Positions 3,024 to 14,349 of a stretch of 14,349 nt of DNA are shown one piece after another. Position 1 is the stretch's first letter; each line of letters opens with the position of its first letter. The stretch is taken from IMG/VR virus record IMGVR_UViG_2585427756_000019; one strand, given 5' to 3'. The notes below the pieces were generated by a model. That model was not told the DNA's origin and made no database searches. It saw only the letters and a program-made list of their open reading frames with translations. This DNA is from a virus (lineage: Duplodnaviria > Heunggongvirae > Uroviricota > Caudoviricetes). The translations under genes were made by a program, and so were the position numbers.

Positions 3024-3056
3024 AAGCCATGCACCTTATCGATGCATGGCTTTTTT
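3024..3056. terminator. Stem-loop with flanking T/A tracts between the convergent cargo gene and psu; candidate bidirectional terminator
   Basis: AAGCCATGCA (3024-3033), 9-nt loop, TGCATGGCTT (3043-3052), followed by a T run to 3056 on the plus strand. On the minus strand it is followed by TTTG. Confidence 0.45.
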
Positions 3057-3086
3057 CAGTAAAAACGGGCGGATTTTCGGGGAATT

Positions 3087-3659
3087 TTACACTGACTGAC
3101 GTGATGCAAGTTGCGCACTTTTACGCGAAAAAATCATGTTCTGCGCAGGGGTGAATTTTTCACGGCTGTCATCCACCGAAGCCACGTCAGGCCTGAATCC
3201 GATGGTCGTTAAAATGTCGCTATCCTGTGCGGAATAATTAATTTTTTCACCCTTCGCAAGCCAGGACAGAAGGGCTTCACGCAGGGCATCTGTGGCACGC
3301 TGTATGGCACAGTTTCGGGCAATGGCCGTCAGCTCACTGTAGCCCATCAGCTCCGGTGCCAGTGCGGCCGCCAGTACTGTGCCGTGCTGCTGCATAAAAT
3401 CATTCAGCCGGTCGCGGATGCTGATGTGCTGAACGGCTTCATGCGAACGAATATAACGACCGGCGGCCTGATTCACCTGCCATTTTCTGACTTCGATAAT
3501 ATTGCGTAATTCGTCCAGGCGGCTGACGTTTCTGCCTTCTCCTGACAGAAGCCGCAGATATTCCTGTTCGGCCGCTGCCAGCTCATTTTTGCGTTGCAGC
3601 CATGCTGCTTTGTTATTCTGACAGGTGTCAAAGGCCTGCTGTAAGGCTGTGCTTTCCAT
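3087..3659 (-). CDS. psu: Polarity suppression protein Psu (capsid decoration / Rho antagonist), P4-like
   Basis: 190-aa ORF beginning MESTALQQAFDTCQNNKAAWLQRKNELAAAEQEYLRLL..., matching P4 Psu in length and recalled sequence. It is last in the sid-delta-psu operon. Confidence 0.9.
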   Translation of the reverse strand: MESTALQQAFDTCQNNKAAWLQRKNELAAAEQEYLRLLSGEGRNVSRLDELRNIIEVRKWQVNQAAGRYIRSHEAVQHISIRDRLNDFMQQHGTVLAAALAPELMGYSELTAIARNCAIQRATDALREALLSWLAKGEKINYSAQDSDILTTIGFRPDVASVDDSREKFTPAQNMIFSRKSAQLASRQSV

Positions 3660-3732
3660 CGTTATCTCTTTCTCATCATGCTGAAGAATAAAAATACGGT
3701 GTGCGGCGACGGCCGGGGTTAACCGGCAGCCC

Positions 3733-5237: not shown

Positions 5238-5516
5238 CGTTGATGGGCTTTTTGTGCTGTTTATTACTGTTTATTTTTATTAATTCGCCGGGAATGAATA
5301 AGAAAAAACGATTTGTATTTCACTATAAAAATTACGAATTGCTTTAAGTGGCTTTAAATGACTTTAAGTGGAGATGAACAAAAAACACACAAGCATTGTA
5401 AGGCTGCCGGAACAAATCCCCCCTGTTGCGTCTGCCAAAAATATTCACAAAATAAAGCGCTACCCGAAGCCGGACGGACTTATCCGGTGCTGTATGGACA
5501 TTAACGAGGTAGCCCG

Positions 5517-5783
5517 ATGCAAGCTGTTTTTTCTTCCCCGTCTCCCGCCCCTGTGACGCCACTGATGCCGCTGCCGGACATCACGCAGGAACGTTTTTTA
5601 CGTCTGCCGGAAGTAATGCACCTGTGCGGCCTGTCACGCTCGACCATCTATGAACTCATCCGTAAGGGGGAATTTCCGCCGCAGGTGAGTCTTGGCGGTA
5701 AAAATGTGGCCTGGCTGCACTCTGAAGTCACCGCATGGATGGCCGGGCGCATTGCCGGACGCAAACGGGGGTACGACGCATGA
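5517..5783 (+). CDS. vis: AlpA/Vis-family small DNA-binding protein (excisionase / transcriptional regulator), P4 orf88-like
   Basis: 88 aa with a GAGG ribosome-binding site 7 nt upstream. The core [47 protein letters not shown] is characteristic of the AlpA helix-turn-helix family. Confidence 0.8.
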
Positions 5784-5875
5784 TGATGCCCGCTCTGCAA
5801 AAACTCCCTTTTTCTGGCTTGCCTTTTTTCGGCATTTGCGGATATAGTTTTCCCGCTGCCGCAAAATCGGCAGCC

Positions 5876-6171
5876 GGGCGTGGAAACCCGAGCAATCTAA
5901 CGGCGACATATGACGCGCCATGCGTCTTTTTTTGTGTCGCAATCAACGCCACAGAGCGCCAGATTATGGTGTGGTGTGTGGTCAGTCGAGCAGATGGCAC
6001 TCCGTGCATCCTGCCCGCGTCCGCTCATTATGCCGCAGGGTCAATGGTAGCTCAGGCGGGGCAGCCTCCGGGCTGGCCGGTATCCGTTAGAGCCGGTATT
6101 TCCACCCCCGTCTGGGCTATCGCCATCGAGCGTGGAAACTCCGGCGATAGCGTAACCTGCTATCTAACGGA
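5876..6171 (+). ncRNA. cI: Putative P4-type RNA immunity leader (cI-like RNA region with seqA / seqB / seqC complementary elements); boundaries approximate
   Basis: Two similar segments containing CGTGGAAAC...ATCTAACGG (5876-5903 and 6129-6171) flank a segment CCGTTAGAGCCGGTATTTCCACCC (6085-6108) that is largely their reverse complement. This recalls the seqA-seqB-seqC arrangement of the P4 immunity region downstream of vis. Confidence 0.35.
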
Positions 6172-6181
6172 GGCTGCCATC

Positions 6182-6379
6182 ATGGCTACAACCCTTACCC
6201 CTTCACACCCTGAATTTGTCTTTGTGTTTGCGGCTGTCCGTCGCGCAGACCGTCATCCCCGTATCTGCATGCTTCGCACCGTCGCCGGTGATGAACGCAG
6301 TGCCCGCCGTTCCCTTGTCCGTGACTATGTGCTCTCCCTTGCTGCCCGTCTGCCGGTGGTGGAGGTGTCCCGTGCGTAA
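6182..6379 (+). CDS. Small hypothetical protein of the satellite left operon (position of P4 kil/eta); 65 aa
   Basis: ATG preceded by GGAGG at about 8 nt. The stop overlaps the start of the next ORF. The ORF-track 214-aa call (5735-6379) is an over-extension through GC-rich sequence. Confidence 0.4.
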
Positions 6380-6659
6380 TAAAAAAGCCCCTCAGACCGT
6401 CTCAGCACGTCATGACGCCCGTGAACACCTCAGCATTGAGGCTTACCATAAGCTCAACCGCGCCAGCGCCGTATCCCAGTTTGTTGGGGGTGATTTGATT
6501 CACCGTGAACTCTCCGGCCTGCATCAGCTCTACATTCCGCATATTTTCAGCTACCTGAATGAAGATATTGATTTTGTGCTGAATGAGCTGAAAGCCAAAG
6601 GCCTGTGCCGCGATTTTCTCGCCCAGCAGAAAGACCGGGGAGACAGGACGCATGTTTGA
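6372..6659 (+). CDS. Epsilon-like small protein (P4 helper-derepression protein position); 95 aa from a GTG start
   Basis: GTG start 4-5 nt after GGAGGTG. The 95-aa product ([28 protein letters not shown]...) agrees in length and position with my recollection of P4 epsilon. Its stop overlaps the next start. Confidence 0.5.
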
Positions 6660-7107
6660 TTTTCCCCAGCCCGGTGAGATTTACCGTTCTGCCGGTTTTC
6701 CCGATGTGGCCGTGGTCGGCATTCTGGAAGACGGTATTCCGTGGGAAATGCCGTACCGCTGCCCGGACATTGTCTGGAACCCGTACCGCCGTAAATTCAG
6801 TATCCTTGTGCGTATCCTCGCTGACGGGCGCACCACAGACATCCCGCTGGGGCGTTTTCTGCGGGAATTTACCTGTGACCGTCCTGACCTGTTTAAACGC
6901 AGCCCCGTAAACCGGCATGCGGTACTGAAAGAAATGGCCGGAGACCCGGAATTACAGAAATGGCGGGAGAAATATCTGGATATTTACCCGCAGGACACTG
7001 TTCCGGTCAGCCGGGCGGCACCGGTGGCGCGGGAATGGCGGGAAATTCCCCGCACGGAGCCTGACCCGGAAATCACCCCGGATAACAGTTACCGCAATTA
7101 TCTGTAA
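6652..7107 (+). CDS. Hypothetical protein, P4 orf151-like
   Basis: 151 aa, exactly the recalled P4 orf151 length. Start overlaps the upstream stop (operon coupling). Confidence 0.7.
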   Translation: MFDFPQPGEIYRSAGFPDVAVVGILEDGIPWEMPYRCPDIVWNPYRRKFSILVRILADGRTTDIPLGRFLREFTCDRPDLFKRSPVNRHAVLKEMAGDPELQKWREKYLDIYPQDTVPVSRAAPVAREWREIPRTEPDPEITPDNSYRNYL

Positions 7108-7242
7108 TTAAAAAACGACACCCGAAAAATTAAATGTGCGTATTCGCGCAGGGATACGCACGTCTTCAGGAGACGCAGATATGCCTTATCAGTTAATGCA
7201 ACCGGCACGGAATGCAGTCATCTGTCACAGGGAGGAAAACAA

Positions 7243-7563
7243 ATGAAAACACCCTTACCGCCCGTCTTACGCGCTGCCCTTTACCGTCGCGCTGTCGCCT
7301 GTGCCTGGCTGACCGTGTGCGAACGTCAGCACCGCTACCCGCATCTCACCCTTGAGTCACTGGAAGCGGCCATCGCCGCTGAGCTGGAAGGCTTTTATCT
7401 GCGCCAGCACGGTGAGGAAAAAGGGCGTCAGATAGCCTGTGCCCTGCTGGAAGATTTAATGGAATCCGGCCCCCTGAAGGCCGCGCCGTCGCTGTCCTTT
7501 CTCGGGCTGGTTGTGATGGATGAACTCTGTGCCCGTCACATAAAAGCGCCGGTACTGCACTGA
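7243..7563 (+). CDS. Hypothetical protein immediately upstream of alpha (P4 orf106-like)
   Basis: 106-aa ORF with GGGAGG ribosome-binding site about 8 nt upstream. Same strand and operon as alpha. Confidence 0.65.
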
Positions 7564-7577
7564 AGGAGAACAACACC

Positions 7578-9911
7578 ATGAAAATGAACGTAACCGCCAC
7601 CGTCAGCCATGCGCTCGGCCACTGGCCGCGTATTCTCCCGGCGCTGGGGATTCAGGTGCTGAAAAACCGTCATCAGCCCTGTCCGGTCTGTGGCGGGAGT
7701 GACCGCTTCCGTTTTGATGACAGGGAGGGGCGCGGCACCTGGTACTGCAATCAGTGTGGTGCCGGTGACGGCCTGAAACTGGTTGAAAAGGTGTTTGGTG
7801 TCTCCCCGTCCGACGCGGCCGCAAAGGTGGCTGCCGTGACCGGCAGCCTGCCCCCGGCTGACCCGGCAGTGACGGCTGCCGCCGGTGCTGAAACAGACGC
7901 TGCCCGGAAGAACGCCGCCGCACTGGCACAAACCCTGATGGCGAAAACCCGTCCCGGAACCGGTAACGCCTACCTGACCCGCAAGGGCTTTCCCGGCCGG
8001 GAATGCCGGATGCTGACCGGCACACACAGAGCCGGTGGCGTGAGCTGGCGTGCCGGTGACCTTGTGGTGCCACTGTATGACGACAGCGGCGAACTGGTTA
8101 ACCTTCAGTTAATCAGTGCTGACGGCCGTAAGCGCACCCTGAAAGGCGGACAGGTCAGGGGCACCTGTCACACCCTTGAAGGACAGAATCAGGCCGGAAA
8201 ACGTCTGTGGATAGCGGAGGGATACGCGACCGCACTTACCGTGCATCACCTGACCGGTGAAACGGTGATGGTGGCGCTTTCTTCCGTGAACCTCCTTTCT
8301 CTGGCCAGCCTTGCCCGGCAGAAGCATCCGGCCTGTCAGATTGTCCTTGCCGCAGACCGTGACCTCAGCGGTGACGGCCAGAAAAAAGCCGCCGCAGCCG
8401 CAGATGCGTGTGAAGGTGTTGTTGCCCTGCCGCCGGTCTTCGGTGACTGGAATGATGCCTTCACGCAGTACGGCGGGGAGGCCACCCGTAAGGCCATTTA
8501 CGATGCCATCCGGCCACCGGCTGAAAGCCCGTTCGACACCATGAGTGAAGCGGAGTTTTCCGCCATGAGTACCAGCGAAAAGGCCATGCGTATCTATGAG
8601 CATTACGGCGAGGCGCTCGCGGTCGATGCCAACGGCCAGCTTCTGTCCCGCTATGAAAATGGTGTCTGGAAGGTGCTGCCGCCACAGGACTTTGCCCGGA
8701 ATGTGGCCGGGCTGTTTCAGCGGCTGCGCGCGCCGTTCTCCTCCGGGAAGGTGGCCTCCGTGGTGGACACCCTGAAGCTGATTATTCCGCAGCAGGAAGC
8801 CCCCTCCCGCTGCCTGATTGGCTTTCGTAACGGCGTGCTCGACACGCAGAACGGCACGTTCCACCCGCACAGTCCGTCACACTGGATGCGTACCCTGTGC
8901 GATGTGGATTTCACCCCGCCGGTGGAAGGGGAAACGCTGGAAACCCACGCCCACGCGTTCTGGCGCTGGCTTGACCGTGCCGCCGGTGGCCGTGCGGAAA
9001 AACGCGACGTGATTCTGGCCGCACTGTTTATGGTGCTGGCAAACCGCTATGACTGGCAGCTCTTTCTGGAGGTGACCGGTCCCGGCGGCAGCGGCAAAAG
9101 TATCATGGCCGAAATAGCCACCCTGCTGGCCGGGGAGGATAACGCCACGTCGGCCACCATTGAGACGCTGGAATCCCCGCGTGAACGTGCCGCGTTAACT
9201 GGCTTCTCACTGATACGCCTGCCGGACCAGGAAAAATGGAGCGGCGACGGAGCCGGACTCAAGGCCATCACCGGCGGCGATGCAGTGTCCGTTGACCCGA
9301 AATACCGGGATGCGTACTCCACGCATATCCCGGCGGTGATTCTGGCCGTGAACAATAACCCGATGCGCTTCACCGACCGCAGCGGCGGCGTGTCACGCCG
9401 GCGGGTGATTATTCACTTCCCGGAACAGATAGCCCCGCAGGAGCGCGACCCGCAGCTTAAGGACAAAATCACCCGCGAGCTGGCGGTCATCGTGCGTCAC
9501 CTGATGCAGAAGTTCAGCGACCCGATGCTCGCCCGGTCACTGCTTCAGTCCCAGCAGAACTCAGACGAGGCACTGAACATCAAACGGGATGCCGACCCGA
9601 CGTTTGATTTTATCGGCTATCTGGAAACCCTGCCGCAGACCAGCGGCATGTATATGGGGAACGCCAGTATCATCCCGCGTAATTACCGTAAATACCTCTA
9701 TCACGCCTATCTGGCCTACATGGAGGCAAACGGCTACCGGAATGTACTCAGTCTGAAAATGTTCGGGCTGGGGCTGCCGGTGATGCTGAAGGAATACGGA
9801 CTGAATTACGAGAAGCGCCATACCAAACAGGGGATACAGACCAACCTGACACTGAAAGAGGAAAGCTACGGCGACTGGCTGCCAAAATGTGACGCCCCTG
9901 CAACAACCTGA
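7578..9911 (+). CDS. alpha: Alpha protein: bifunctional primase / SF3 helicase with C-terminal origin-binding domain, P4-like
   Basis: 777 aa, the P4 alpha length. N-terminal zinc-binding motif CPVCGGSDRFRFDDREGRGTWYCNQCG, Walker A GPGGSGKS at LEVTGPGGSGKSIMAEIA, AAGGAG ribosome-binding site upstream. Confidence 0.95.
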   Translation: MKMNVTATVSHALGHWPRILPALGIQVLKNRHQPCPVCGGSDRFRFDDREGRGTWYCNQCGAGDGLKLVEKVFGVSPSDAAAKVAAVTGSLPPADPAVTAAAGAETDAARKNAAALAQTLMAKTRPGTGNAYLTRKGFPGRECRMLTGTHRAGGVSWRAGDLVVPLYDDSGELVNLQLISADGRKRTLKGGQVRGTCHTLEGQNQAGKRLWIAEGYATALTVHHLTGETVMVALSSVNLLSLASLARQKHPACQIVLAADRDLSGDGQKKAAAAADACEGVVALPPVFGDWNDAFTQYGGEATRKAIYDAIRPPAESPFDTMSEAEFSAMSTSEKAMRIYEHYGEALAVDANGQLLSRYENGVWKVLPPQDFARNVAGLFQRLRAPFSSGKVASVVDTLKLIIPQQEAPSRCLIGFRNGVLDTQNGTFHPHSPSHWMRTLCDVDFTPPVEGETLETHAHAFWRWLDRAAGGRAEKRDVILAALFMVLANRYDWQLFLEVTGPGGSGKSIMAEIATLLAGEDNATSATIETLESPRERAALTGFSLIRLPDQEKWSGDGAGLKAITGGDAVSVDPKYRDAYSTHIPAVILAVNNNPMRFTDRSGGVSRRRVIIHFPEQIAPQERDPQLKDKITRELAVIVRHLMQKFSDPMLARSLLQSQQNSDEALNIKRDADPTFDFIGYLETLPQTSGMYMGNASIIPRNYRKYLYHAYLAYMEANGYRNVLSLKMFGLGLPVMLKEYGLNYEKRHTKQGIQTNLTLKEESYGDWLPKCDAPATT

Positions 9912-9918
9912 CCCACCT

Positions 9919-9944
9919 GACCGGCATCTGCCGGTCTTTTTTTT
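9919..9944 (+). terminator. Rho-independent terminator after alpha
   Basis: GACCGGC / GCCGGTC stem with a 4-nt loop, followed by eight T (9937-9944), starting 8 nt after the alpha stop. Confidence 0.65.
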
Positions 9945-9960
9945 ATCCCGACATCCCCCG

Positions 9961-10260
9961 AAGGTGAACAATCCAGTGTTCACCCTTCACCGTATATTCA
10001 CCCGTTATCATACTGAAATTAAAAGAGAAAAACGAAAGGTGAACAGTGTGAACAATCAAATCAAAAAAAACTTTTTTCTTCCTGAGTGATTTCAGTACGG
10101 GGGATTAATCACCGGTATGAGTCACACCGACAGAATGCCGGAGGTGAAGAATCGAATGTTCACCCTTCACCCATTATTCACCACCTATCACTCTGAAATA
10201 AAAGGAGAAAAAAGAAAGGTGAACAGTGTGAACAGTTCTTTCGAAAAAAAATTTTTTTCC
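9961..10260. repeat. crr: crr-like cis replication region: two roughly 120-bp direct repeats at 180-bp period, each with TGTTCACC / GGTGAACA iterons
   Basis: Units 9961-10082 and 10141-10260 align with high identity at an offset of exactly 180 bp. Each carries GGTGAACA, TGTTCACC, GGTGAACA and GTGTGAACA motifs. This matches the recalled P4 crr (two 120-bp repeats, 60-bp spacer) about 4.5-4.8 kb from ori. Confidence 0.7.
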
Positions 10261-10513
10261 TGTACGATATAGCATCAATCCAAGTAAAAATGCGCTTTCA
10301 TTTCACATTAACTTACAGCCATTGGTATACGATTAGGTATACGCACAAAAACTGAATTAAACAAAATCATTAAAAATCAAAGCAATACAATATTTATTCA
10401 AACTCCGCCAGCCATGATTGGACGGTGTAAGGACAACACCAACAAAAACAGGAAGTTAGAAGTCTCAGCAAAACACCGACCAGACGGTGAGGAGACATAA
10501 AAGGATACGCAAA

Positions 10514-10570: not shown

Positions 10571-13500
10571 TCAGAACGACCAGTTCACACCAGCTACCGC
10601 GTTCCACGGGGATTCCACACCGGCACTATGGCTATACCCCACCCCAAGATGCCCGCTTAACGTACTGCTGAATGAGGCTTTAATACCTGCCTGGTATATT
10701 CCACGTCTGCCCGACAAATAATTGACGAAATTACCGTCACTATTCACTTTCACCCGGTTATCATCGACAAATTCTTTGCGCACAGCCGCCTTCAGCCACG
10801 GCTCAACTTCCATACCGTTCCCCAGACGCATGTTGTAACTCAGCGTTGCGCCCAGTTCACGATATATACTGCGGGTATCGACTGATTTCGATTTCATGCC
10901 ATTGGATAAATGATATTCGGGGTTATCAGCGGTGAACCCCGTTAACGATGCATACGGCGTCAGGTTCCAGTTACCATCGGTAAATCGCATCCCGGTTTCA
11001 ATGTGACCGCCCAGCCCGTTGCTGTGGTAACTGCCATTGGCGGCTCCACCGCTGCTCATTTTACCTGCTACGTTACTTTTAAAACGGTTCAGCTTCACGA
11101 CACCGTCCAGATAGAAACCACTTTCATGTTCCCAACTGGCATAGCCGCCCAGAGAATAACTGCCCACACTGCCATGTCCTCCGCGATCAAAACCGATATG
11201 TGAATGGGAATAGCCCATAAAAGCGCCTAGCGTGGTAATTCCTTCAGGAATATCATTACGGCTGTCGATCCCCACTGTCATTCCGGTCAGCGTCTGCTCA
11301 AACCCGGCACCCGCATCGGTGGTGACATTATTACGGGTGTTATACGTCGCCCCCCAGACATTATTGTTGTGTGGACTCGCTTTCATTATGTTCAACCGCT
11401 CGCGAATACTGTTTAGCTCAGCATCAAATACCAACGGTAATGTTGCTGCCATATTGAGTACGGCTGCCGTAGAAGGCGTAATGCGTTTCTCCGGAACGGG
11501 TGTCGGCGTTGGATCGGGAGTAGGGTCTGGTTTTGGATTTGGGTCTGGCTTTGGATCGGGTTTTGGGTCTGGCTTTGGATTTGGGATGGGGTCCGGGTTG
11601 GGTTTGACATCATTGGTCAGGTTCCAGTTGCTGTTGCCGTCACTTTTCAGGACATACTCATAGGTCCCAAGATCAACGAAACCGCCGGTATTGCCCAGCG
11701 TAAACGAAGCATCCCCTCCCCCTGTTTTCACCAGCGTCATCGCGTCGTCAGACTGTGGGCTGACGCCGGTATCCTGAACAAAGATTTTAAAATTACCAGT
11801 GGCGTTGTTGTTGACGACCAGTTGATCGCCCCGGGAGCCTGCAACGTTGGTATGCAGGTAGAAATTACCGCTACCGGAAAGTTCATTGGTTGTCAGCGTA
11901 TTGTAGATACCGTTAGTTGTGGCAGGCGCTGCTGTTTGTGCTGACAAATAAACATCACCGTCGTTGAGTAGCAAACTGTTTACTCTATATTCGCAGTTGC
12001 TGGTACCTGCACAGGAATTATTGCTGTTAAGCCAGACACTGCCCCGGCTGGCAGCCGTCAGGTCGGCAAGCGTGGTATCGACGCCATTTCCCAGAGTCAA
12101 TGTCGCGCTATCGGTAATCCGGACCGCCCCTTCGAGTTTAACTGGCGTAACATTATCCCGTGGCGTCATTAACGACAGGCTTCCTGTCGCGCCACTGACC
12201 GATGCATCCGCCAGCGTACCTGCGTAGACGATTGCCGTACCGCCAGCGACCTGGAGATCTTCTGCCCGGGCCAGAGCCTGAAACTCATCTTTTGACCGCC
12301 CAAGGGTATATTGCCCGCCAGAGTTAACCTTTGTGGCGGAGTCCTGACCCAGGTTTTGCATTGCCCCACCCTTGCCAACCGTGGAGTCGCGAGCTTCGGT
12401 ACCTGCTAATACCAATAAATTACCGCCATTTTCCAGCAACATATTGGTCGCTAAATTGCCGGAAATGGAAAAAGTACCGTACTGGTGAGTACCGCTGATT
12501 TCAATACCGTTAGCCGTGCTCGTCTGGAGAGCGGCACCGCTGTTCTGGACGATATCTGTCGCTTTGCCATTATCGTTGACTGTCAGCGTACCGCCTTCAT
12601 TGATCTTTGTTTTTATTGCCTCTCCGTTAGCTGAAACTGTTTGTATTCCGCCGTCGTTAATTGTTGTCTCATTCGCCACACCCTCGACAATTTGTTCACC
12701 GCCGGTGAGCGTCGTGCCTGTCGCAGTGGCTTTTGTTTTGACGATCTCCCGTCCGCCCATATTGACCTGTGTTTTGTCAGAAGAGGTGTCTGACTCCACG
12801 GTTAACACGCCGCCATTTGCCAGCAGGATATTGTTCGCCGCACCCTGCTCGATGCTGAACGCGACGCCATCCGCGCGTGTTCCTGTGACCCGCGTCGCCC
12901 TGGTGGTTGCAACCAAAGCGCCCTGGCTACTCTGCTGTATCCCCGTTGCGCTGCCTTTCTCCCGCACATCGAGTGTGCCGCCGTCATTAAGCACCGAGTT
13001 TTCAGCCAGACCGCCCTCATTAACTACCTGTGAACCCCCATTAATAATGGAACCTTCCGCTGTCCCGTTTGCCATAATTTGTTGTAGGCCAGAGACGATA
13101 TCGGTATTGATTGCCTTACCATAATTCTGAACGGTTTGCGTGCCACCATTGATGTGTGTTTTCTCTGTTGACCCACCATCAACAATTTGTTCACCACTTT
13201 CGATATTTGCTTCAGTGGCTAAACCATATACCGTTTGCTTGCCACCTTTGATATTTGCTTTATCAGAAGTGGCACTGGCATATATTGTTTGGGTGCCAGC
13301 ACTATTGAGTACAGTGCCAACATCTTTTCCATAAACATCCATTTTGCCGTTGGCATTAATAATCGTGTCAACTGCGCGGGAACCAGTGACGACTGTTAAT
13401 GAGCCAGCGTTTTCCAGCACTACATTTTTAGCTTCTGAATTCCTGATGTAGAAAGCATCACCATAACTGTTGGTTCCTTCGATAAGTGTTCCGGAGGTCG

Positions 13501-13718
13501 TGGAAGCAATTAATGCGCCGCCGGATTGTTGCTCAACATGCTTAGCCTCACCACCGTCCTGAACCTCCAGAACGCCGCCATTATTAAGTCTGGTGCTATC
13601 TGTTTTAGCCTCCTTCTGGACAATCAGCTTACCGCCAGTATCAATGGTAGTATTTTTCGCCGAGGTTTTAGCCACTACCGTCAGTTCGCCGGTATTTTCC
13701 AGCACAACATAATTAGCC
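10571..13718 (-). pseudogene. AIDA-I/Ag43-type autotransporter adhesin (beta-helical passenger, Pro-rich linker, C-terminal beta-barrel); 5' end removed by the IS10 insertion
   Basis: C-terminus ...NAVAGVNWSF is an autotransporter barrel signature. Linker PNPDPIPNPKPDPKPDPKPDPNPKPDPTPDPTPTPVP. The passenger has Gly-rich beta-helix repeats. The apparent N-terminus MCIHLNLMIFTKIIRGF is encoded by the IS10 end and there is no signal peptide, so the ORF is a fusion artefact. Confidence 0.85.
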
Positions 13719-14349
13719 CTGATGAATCCCCTAATGATTTTGGTAAAAATCATTAAGTTAAGGTGGATACACATCTTGTCATATGATCAAATGGTTTCGC
13801 GAAAAATCAATAATCAGACAACAAGATGTGCGAACTCGATATTTTACACGACTCTCTTTACCAATTCTGCCCCGAATTACACTTAAAACGACTCAACAGC
13901 TTAACGTTGGCTTGCCACGCCTTACTTGACTGTAAAACTCTCACTCTTACCGAACTTGGCCGTAACCTGCCAACCAAAGCGAGAACAAAACATAACATCA
14001 AACGAATCGACCGATTGTTAGGTAATCGTCACCTCCACAAAGAGCGACTCGCTGTATACCGTTGGCATGCTAGCTTTATCTGTTCGGGCAATACGATGCC
14101 CATTGTACTTGTTGACTGGTCTGATATTCGTGAGCAAAAACGACTTATGGTATTGCGAGCTTCAGTCGCACTACACGGTCGTTCTGTTACTCTTTATGAG
14201 AAAGCGTTCCCGCTTTCAGAGCAATGTTCAAAGAAAGCTCATGACCAATTTCTAGCCGACCTTGCGAGCATTCTACCGAGTAACACCACACCGCTCATTG
14301 TCAGTGATGCTGGCTTTAAAGTGCCATGGTATAAATCCGTTGAGAAGCT
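13719..14349 (+). mobile_element. IS10 (IS4 family; Tn10-type), outside end plus 5' half of the transposase, continues past window end
   Basis: From 13719 the sequence reads CTGATGAATCCCCTAATGATTTTGGTAAAAATCATTAAG..., the IS10 terminal sequence as I recall it. Confidence 0.9.
13826..14349 (+). CDS. IS10 transposase, N-terminal part (open to window end)
   Basis: ATG at 13826 translates to MCELDILHDSLYQFCPELHLKRLNSLTLACHALLDCKTLTLTELGRNLPTKARTK..., the IS10 transposase N-terminus. Not listed in the ORF track because there is no stop in the window. Confidence 0.9.
   Translation, partial: MCELDILHDSLYQFCPELHLKRLNSLTLACHALLDCKTLTLTELGRNLPTKARTKHNIKRIDRLLGNRHLHKERLAVYRWHASFICSGNTMPIVLVDWSDIREQKRLMVLRASVALHGRSVTLYEKAFPLSEQCSKKAHDQFLADLASILPSNTTPLIVSDAGFKVPWYKSVEK

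Follow-up and report, generated by a model that had tools for sequence, protein, structure and literature searches.

Stem-loops placed between cistrons set the differential expression of genes within a single operon, as exemplified by the REP hairpins of malE-malF, by papB-papA and by the 3' hairpins of the T7 early mRNAs, and for simple stabilizer hairpins of this kind an invariant loop sequence is not required. In the operator of T4 gene 43, the replication protein itself binds a hairpin that lies just 5' of the Shine-Dalgarno sequence. Among phage satellites, P4 is the model. Elements of its type are found in a large share of enterobacterial genomes, their replication being dependent on alpha dosage and on the balance between Cnr and alpha; no cis element has been assigned so far to the partition of left-operon expression downstream of the immunity switch exerted by the CI RNA. 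Herein, we analyzed a 14,349-nucleotide stretch of viral DNA (Caudoviricetes; IMG/VR record IMGVR_UViG_2585427756_000019; hereafter, the window) and describe an RNA stem-loop at its orf151-cnr junction, which we consider, with a probability of roughly 0.8, to be a functional element of the sense-strand RNA.

The window is a P4-type satellite prophage, the region 6000-8000 of which was 98.2% identical over its whole length to satellite phage P4 (X51522 / NC_001609); a window coordinate equals 14547 minus the P4 coordinate. Its plus strand corresponds to the left (replication) operon of P4, which comprises the immunity leader, epsilon, orf151, ORF106/cnr and alpha, followed by t-alpha and crr.

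In the gap between ORF151 and ORF106/cnr, the preliminary description had noted a perfect 8-bp inverted repeat with a 10-nt loop. The repeat was present as described, its arms GTGCGTAT and ATACGCAC being separated by 10 nt, and only its position called for correction, the coordinates 7137-7162 having been shifted by one base from the true arms listed in Table 1. In the plus-strand fold, both arms were included in a 12-bp stem (7134-7145 with 7152-7163) containing the G·U pairs U7135·G7162 and U7144·G7153, with a free energy of -17.5 kcal/mol, dinucleotide shuffles averaging -7.2 (z = -4.9), and this fold accounted for 77% of the ensemble; the minus strand reached only -10.7 kcal/mol. Taken alone, the 8-bp repeat was not beyond chance, as perfect 8-bp repeats with loops of 3-12 nt numbered 2.1 +/- 1.5 in dinucleotide shuffles of the window and 14 in the window itself, and it was conservation and covariation, not the repeat, that established the hairpin as a real feature. 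Short-loop perfect inverted repeats of 8 bp were also located at 2129, 2920-2990, 3025-3060, 7829, 9963, 10538 and 13732, and some of them are probably terminators, e.g., near the psu 3' end and within crr and IS10. Nor is the dyad a new sighting, since the P4 record X02534 (Lin, 1984) had already annotated an "imperfect region of dyad symmetry" at 3656-3690, equivalent to 7132-7166 of the window, along with a "-10 consensus" TGTAAT at 7103-7108, with no function attached to either.

A covariance model built from the alignment of relatives (R1) recognized the hairpin with 52 bits (E = 2e-15) and found exactly one copy per element, with none elsewhere in the window or P4; its search of the helper phage P2 likewise returned no copy, and a REP/BIME repeat was rejected on these grounds. 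A cmscan of the whole window against Rfam release 15 at E <= 1 gave no match in 7100-7250, the matches elsewhere in the window being ALIL, RNA-OUT, C4, isrK and c4-a1b1. Full-text literature searches, which did not extend to the early papers on P4 transcription or to the review of 1993, retrieved no description of the site.

Loci for comparison were gathered through homologues of ORF151 from reference genomes, metagenomes, IMG/VR and individual assemblies. Conservation in P4 and its relatives was clearly positive: the hairpin followed orf151 at every locus with an ORF151 identity of at least 48% and enough downstream sequence, that is, at ~165 loci with 42 distinct intergenic sequences, in approximately 13 genera (Escherichia, Kluyvera, Scandinavium, Citrobacter, Salmonella, Edwardsiella, Hafnia, Buttiauxella, Cedecea, Serratia, Yersinia, Tenebrionibacter and Intestinirhabdus). 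The mean column identity was 0.90 for the hairpin, 0.94 for its loop and 0.92 for the adjoining Shine-Dalgarno block, compared with 0.67 for the third codon positions of orf151 and 0.69 for the spacer that separates the orf151 stop codon from the hairpin.

Base pairs were counted in a loop-anchored alignment of the 18 distinct hairpin variants. There, 89.8% of the cells were paired and both sides had changed in 6 of the 12 pairs, a level of pairing and covariation reached by none of 500 shuffles, and the pairing collapsed when the registers were slid. One pair, for instance, is G-C in P4, G·U in the element L020 and A-U in the element L090; an Edwardsiella element carries tandem U·G/G·U in the stem; a UC to CU change at the top of the stem converts U·G/C-G to C-G/U·G; and in the group of Yersinia and L090 the stem sequence is shifted with the pairing still complete. 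Five of the six positions of the loop consensus GCRCAG and the G that follows it were invariant in all 18 variants (columns 15, 16 and 18-21). When the sequences between the stop codon and the AUG, aligned without constraint, were submitted to RNAalifold, the hairpin was the sole consensus structure. Moreover, there were 33 G·U pairs against 6 A·C pairs, an excess that marks the sense (plus) strand as the folding strand. Compensatory pairing was hence found across relatives and on one strand, as in a structured cis-regulatory mRNA: a plus-strand structure under selection, with an invariant loop and a covarying stem, is present in single copy 18-19 nt before the next start codon. These data bear out the RNA structure that had been suggested beforehand, and the protein operator offered beside it is disfavored, in its DNA sense, by the strand asymmetry and by the asymmetric invariant center with its covarying arms.

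We accordingly regard as very improbable any reading at the level of DNA or of coincidence, i.e., a palindrome serving a dimeric DNA-binding protein as operator or promoter element, a leftward antisense terminator or a chance repeat. The half-sites TGCG...CGCA do keep a constant spacing, and about two such repeats are expected by chance in the window; however, the excess of G·U over A·C marks a plus-strand RNA, the invariant center is asymmetric, and compensatory changes occur at what would be spacer positions of an operator, on which account a palindromic DNA operator was rejected, while chance is excluded by the conservation in ~13 genera. As for an antisense terminator, the minus strand of the P4 type (7128-7169 of the window) reads the hairpin followed by ATTTAATTTTT, and in P4 itself by AUUUAAUUUUU, and so resembles a weak terminator of leftward transcription, but the minus-strand fold is much the weaker and its T-richness is not kept in the Hafnia and S. 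fonticola types. The "-10 consensus" of 1984 might be taken for a sigma-70 promoter; it lacks an acceptable -35 hexamer, and the promoter scan called no sigma-70-like site there.

Several other pairings and resemblances were tried and rejected. A second small hairpin, GUCUUCAGGAGAC (7162-7174), would mask the Shine-Dalgarno sequence, but relatives have GUCCUC, GUGCUC or ACCCUC and its pairing is not kept. An enclosing helix of AUCUGU with GCAGAU (7100-7105 with 7175-7180) was not conserved. A 7-mer match such as that of the loop to CCUGUGC in cnr (7298-7304) is to be expected by chance within 4 kb, and the distant clade lacks this match; a pseudoknot of the loop with codons 2-3 of the next open reading frame (ORF) was confined to some lineages. 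Finally, mimicry of a tRNA or of an RNase P minihelix was dismissed, as ARAGORN found none and there is no T-loop.

The gap in which the hairpin lies had been described as a 135-bp intergenic interval. Its length and flanking ORFs were as stated, but it is not simply intergenic, as it holds a Shine-Dalgarno sequence and an ORF of 21 codons with its own AGGAG (Table 1). In a 76%-identical E. coli element, this hairpin and Shine-Dalgarno sequence stand ahead of a complete gene of 86 aa, phrog_10110, that likewise overlaps cnr; in the alignment with this full gene, P4 retains both ends with the middle deleted. Judged from this alignment, the 21-codon ORF is an internally deleted relic of the 85-90 aa gene phrog_10110 (function unassigned), which most relatives carry between orf151 and cnr. 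Another element, L173, carries a relic of 24 codons that overlaps cnr through the same ATGA, the relics of P4 and L173 both retaining the Shine-Dalgarno sequence and AUG, and two further relatives carry truncated versions of the 85-90 aa gene; translation into cnr has been preserved even in lineages that lost the protein. Because the same hairpin and Shine-Dalgarno sequence precede either a full or a relic gene, the hairpin was assigned to the region in which translation of the first replication-block cistron is initiated.

The distances on the two sides of the hairpin differ in their constancy. From the end of the 10-bp core, AGGAG starts 6 nt downstream, and the functional AUG follows at 18-19 nt in 20 of 20 representatives (19 nt in the window), whichever cistron comes next (the 85-90 aa gene, cnr directly, or a short relic ORF); from the orf151 stop codon to the core, relatives span 22-48 nt. 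The hairpin is in this respect loosely tied to the downstream start, and a stretch so short and partly inherited should not be overweighted. Upstream of the hairpin, the segment 7078-7114, which consists of the last 30 nt of orf151 and TAATTAAAAA after the stop codon, was near-invariant in relatives, wobble positions included (column identity 0.8-1.0 vs 0.67), and hints at a further nucleotide-level constraint beside the hairpin; the "-10 consensus" falls inside it. In E. coli 02E060, an IS66-family element (ISCro1-like) is inserted in the left arm of the hairpin (2440-2510 of that locus, equivalent to 7140/7141 of the window), so that everything upstream, including orf151, is replaced and the homology to P4 restarts at TATTCGCGCAGG. 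The same junction occurs in a second genome, H40.

As to function, the preliminary description had noted that no T tract follows the repeat and had held a terminator to be less likely than an RNA structure or a protein operator; against a terminator, it was borne out in the canonical intrinsic sense. The plus strand continues with GTCTTCAGGAG, and the stretch GUCUUCAGGAG downstream of the hairpin offers no U tract; the terminator scan of 5500-10300 called t1 (5912) and t-alpha (9919) but not the hairpin. Since it lacks a U tract and is uncalled by the scan, the hairpin was rejected as a canonical intrinsic terminator, even though it possesses the stable, G+C-rich stem and short loop of one (12 bp, 6 nt, -17.5 kcal/mol). 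An RNase III site was rejected as well, the stem being 12 bp at most against the roughly 20 bp of about two helical turns.

We favor a mechanism, at a little under even odds, in which the hairpin would act as a boundary or gate and as a stabilizer of a 3' end. It would be a cis-acting stem-loop in the polycistronic sense mRNA of the P4 left operon transcribed from PLE/PLL, located where the promoter-proximal genes (immunity leader, epsilon and orf151) meet the replication block (the relic or 86-aa gene, cnr and alpha). Acting post-transcriptionally, its stem may resist 3'-to-5' decay and so give a promoter-proximal RNA of ~1.3 kb a defined or more stable 3' end; such an exonuclease barrier would come into play after processing or factor-dependent termination, the hairpin itself being unable to terminate alone. 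As the hairpin abuts the ribosome-binding site and its loop is sequence-specific, a putative bound factor is further proposed to set how much translation or transcript proceeds into cnr-alpha. The outcome would be a ratio, fixed or regulated, between the upstream products and the dosage-sensitive Cnr and alpha, with cnr/alpha lowered; that the repeat may modulate alpha against the upstream genes had been suggested in the preliminary description and is plausible from where the hairpin lies. The -10 hexamer of PLE ended at 5848 by the promoter scan and the isrK/seqA model starts at 5855, which places the 3' side of the hairpin (7163) at ~1.31 kb and t-alpha at ~4.09 kb from PLE. Early PLE transcripts are reportedly 4.1 and 1.3 kb long.

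The same transcript pattern could be read in terms of the polymerase, through factor-dependent attenuation or antitermination: the nascent hairpin would pause or terminate the polymerase without a U tract, mark the trimming point of Rho-ended transcripts, or serve as a nut/put-like RNA, possibly with ORF151. We consider this unlikely. The conserved loop on a covarying stem is a boxB-type pattern, the predicted distance of 1.31 kb from PLE would agree with an early RNA of 1.3 kb, and unconventional terminators are known in the P4 operon, t4 reportedly being Rho-independent but atypical and timm Rho-dependent. Nevertheless, the missing U tract excludes an intrinsic terminator and no boxA-like element was identified; a lambda nut site (boxA + boxB) was rejected for the 12-bp stem, the GCRCAG loop and a spacer in which no boxA-like block is conserved. 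The hairpin is not timm either, which maps elsewhere, at X51522 8365-8209 or 6182-6338 of the window (PMC3177188). The CI RNA showed no special complementarity to this site: its duplex with 7100-7250 amounted to -44.7 kcal/mol, among the weakest when the mean per 150-nt operon window is -68.5, and the hairpin lies outside the leader between PLE and timm, so that a CI RNA target of the seqA/seqC type was rejected on both counts.

The leading rival is a translational operator, possible but to our judgment doubtful, in which a protein bound to the loop and stem hinders or helps the 30S subunit in binding at the first replication-block cistron and the ATGA coupling passes the effect on to cnr/alpha; that protein could be encoded by P4 (ORF151, Cnr or alpha) or be a host factor. 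It would account for the invariance of GCRCAG and the next G across clades with different stems, for the conservation of hairpin and Shine-Dalgarno block as a unit at a constant distance from the AUG whatever gene follows, for the retention of the Shine-Dalgarno sequence, AUG and stop/start overlap with cnr by the relic ORFs, and for the fact that all the hairpins found follow orf151. On the other hand, the binding protein is hypothetical, and ORF151, the 86-aa protein and Cnr have no recognizable RNA-binding domain; the hairpin does not cover the Shine-Dalgarno sequence and the AUG; the comparison with T4 gene 43 is one by analogy; and sampling based on ORF151 biases the co-occurrence.

Another reading, which we hold to be highly improbable, would make the site a target of CsrA, with CAGGGAU at the loop/stem junction and CAGGAG in the Shine-Dalgarno block, 17 nt apart, bridged by a dimer that represses the downstream cistron. 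The SELEX consensus of CsrA is reportedly RUACARGGAUGU, and bridging is optimal at ~18 nt between sites. CAGGGAU (7149-7155) matches the core CARGGAU of this consensus, and in the P4-type clade the second GGA, in the Shine-Dalgarno sequence, is 17 nt downstream, near this optimum. Yet GGA is absent in 5 of the 18 hairpin variants (GGGC or GGGU), the Shine-Dalgarno sequences of the Yersinia, L090 and S. fonticola types (AAGAGAG, AAAGAGA) lack it, and the predicted fold has the GGA of the hairpin base-paired, not displayed by the loop; the invariant part is GCRCAG with the next G and not GGA.

Several points weigh against the favored function as a boundary and 3'-end stabilizer, or against its generality. 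A plain exonuclease barrier needs no invariant loop, and the conservation of the loop fits a specific binding site better. The match to the 1.3-kb transcript is one between a predicted distance and a reported length. The element is not universal in P4-like satellites, since no hairpin was found in two distant orf151-like lineages (46% and 40% identity) or in an element without orf151, where the neighboring genes simply overlap. All the loci were retrieved via ORF151, and the co-occurrence of hairpin and orf151 comes from this ORF151-based sample. Pairing is also imperfect in places, with 2-3 uncompensated mid-stem mismatches in the group of Hafnia, Buttiauxella and Cedecea and a single C·A mismatch in each of two other lineages. 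The constant AUG spacing, in turn, partly reflects common descent and the ordinary constraint between Shine-Dalgarno sequence and AUG.

A speculative extension, which we judge improbable, is that ORF151 and the adjoining hairpin form a dedicated pair of regulator and RNA site, working either as an N/nut-like gate for polymerase or ribosome or as an autogenous translational operator. It was suggested by the finding that every hairpin follows orf151 and by the structural model of ORF151, in which a Tudor-like barrel is predicted that is similar to the domains by which CarD, UvrD and Mfd bind RNA polymerase. If true, the pair would decide passage from the immunity/derepression half of the operon into its cnr-alpha half and represent an unrecognized control point of P4-like elements. 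Within orf151, three direct AGAAATGGCGGGA-like 12-13-mers were observed at 6930, 6956 and 7031 (span 6930-7043), which translate into repeats of (K/E)W(R)E in the tail of ORF151 predicted to be disordered; two of the three are annotated as "direct repeat 5/5'" in the P4 record.

The features of the left operon are listed in Table 1.

Table 1. Coordinates of the hairpin and of the left-operon features around it, numbered along the window.
Feature	Position	Strand	Remarks
c4-a1b1	5842-5894		Immunity leader; Rfam
isrK/seqA	5855-5932		Immunity leader; Rfam
C4/CI RNA	6040-6127		Immunity leader; Rfam
orf151	6652-7107	+	3' end precedes the hairpin at every hairpin-bearing locus
A/T-rich single-stranded spacer	7108-7133	+	From orf151 stop codon to hairpin; variable length in relatives
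Whole RNA stem-loop	7134-7163	+	12-bp stem and 6-nt loop; P4 X51522 nt 7384-7413, complementary strand
Left arm of perfect 8-bp inverted repeat	7136-7143	+	GTGCGTAT
Hexaloop	7146-7151	+	GCGCAG; family consensus GCRCAG
Right arm of perfect 8-bp inverted repeat	7154-7161	+	ATACGCAC
Shine-Dalgarno block	7164-7174	+	YUCAGGAGAC; includes Shine-Dalgarno AGGAG (7168-7172) of the next cistron
21-codon ORF	7181-7246	+	Own AGGAG; TGA (7244-7246) overlaps cnr ATG (7243-7245) as ATGA
cnr (ORF106, DUF5375)	7243-7563	+	First intact replication-block gene served by this initiation region
alpha	7578-9911	+	Next after cnr
t-alpha	9919-9945		Called by terminator scan

Outside the operon, the window carries a fragment of an IS3-family element at 102-499 (orfA with HTH_Tnp_1; ALIL frameshift pseudoknot, 120 bits), beside which lies a 220-aa ORF (591-1253) with the catalytic domain of a phage integrase and nothing else of it; this insertion sequence appears to have truncated the integrase of the prophage. 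Between the integrase remnant and psu lies a 545-aa ORF (1250-2887) without a Pfam match, at a position occupied in P4 by gop-beta-cII and described as a hotspot of anti-phage defense genes. Just past crr, the minus strand encodes a 1066-aa AIDA/Ag43-like autotransporter (10571-13833; AIDA repeats, Pertactin and Autotransporter beta-domain), which is abutted by the outer end of an IS10 (RNA-OUT, 98.8 bits, 13764-13833 on the minus strand) that runs beyond the window.

The hairpin at the orf151/cnr junction offers a concrete, mutable candidate site for a second control point in the P4 left operon and a candidate new RNA motif for the databases, and the 135-bp "gap" of P4 can be re-read as the relic of a gene still present in most relatives, translation into cnr being preserved. 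The gain is nonetheless incremental, since intercistronic regulatory hairpins are familiar and the element, uncatalogued as it is, is of an ordinary cis-regulatory kind in a well-known phage.

Compared with the described systems, the hairpin shares with the intercistronic stabilizers its nature as a stable sense hairpin between two cistrons, after a stop codon and without a U tract, at a place where shorter and full-length transcripts would diverge; unlike them, it is single-copy, has a 12-bp stem too short for a classical RNase III site and keeps its loop invariant. With the immunity elements of P4 itself (seqA/IsrK-like, CI/C4 RNA and seqC; t1, t4 and timm), it has in common the operon, the phage and control at the RNA level, but it lies outside the leader, ~1 kb downstream of the Rfam-matched interval 5842-6127, with no Rfam match and no special complementarity to the CI RNA. 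To lambda nut/boxB it is similar as a short hairpin with a sequence-specific loop and a variable stem in an early operon, just past a small regulatory gene; it differs in having 12 bp and a 6-nt loop instead of 5 bp and a GNRA-like pentaloop, and in that no boxA and no arginine-rich N-like protein were seen. From the operators of T4 gene 43 and of the MS2/PP7 coat proteins it is set apart by the absence of sequence similarity, by a hairpin that excludes the Shine-Dalgarno sequence and AUG, by a first cistron that is variable or degenerate, and by a cognate protein that is hypothetical. It nevertheless resembles these operators in its conserved loop and covarying stem and in adjoining the ribosome-binding site of a replication-gene block, and, in the case of the T4 gene 43 operator, also in the distance of ~18-19 nt between the end of the hairpin and the AUG.

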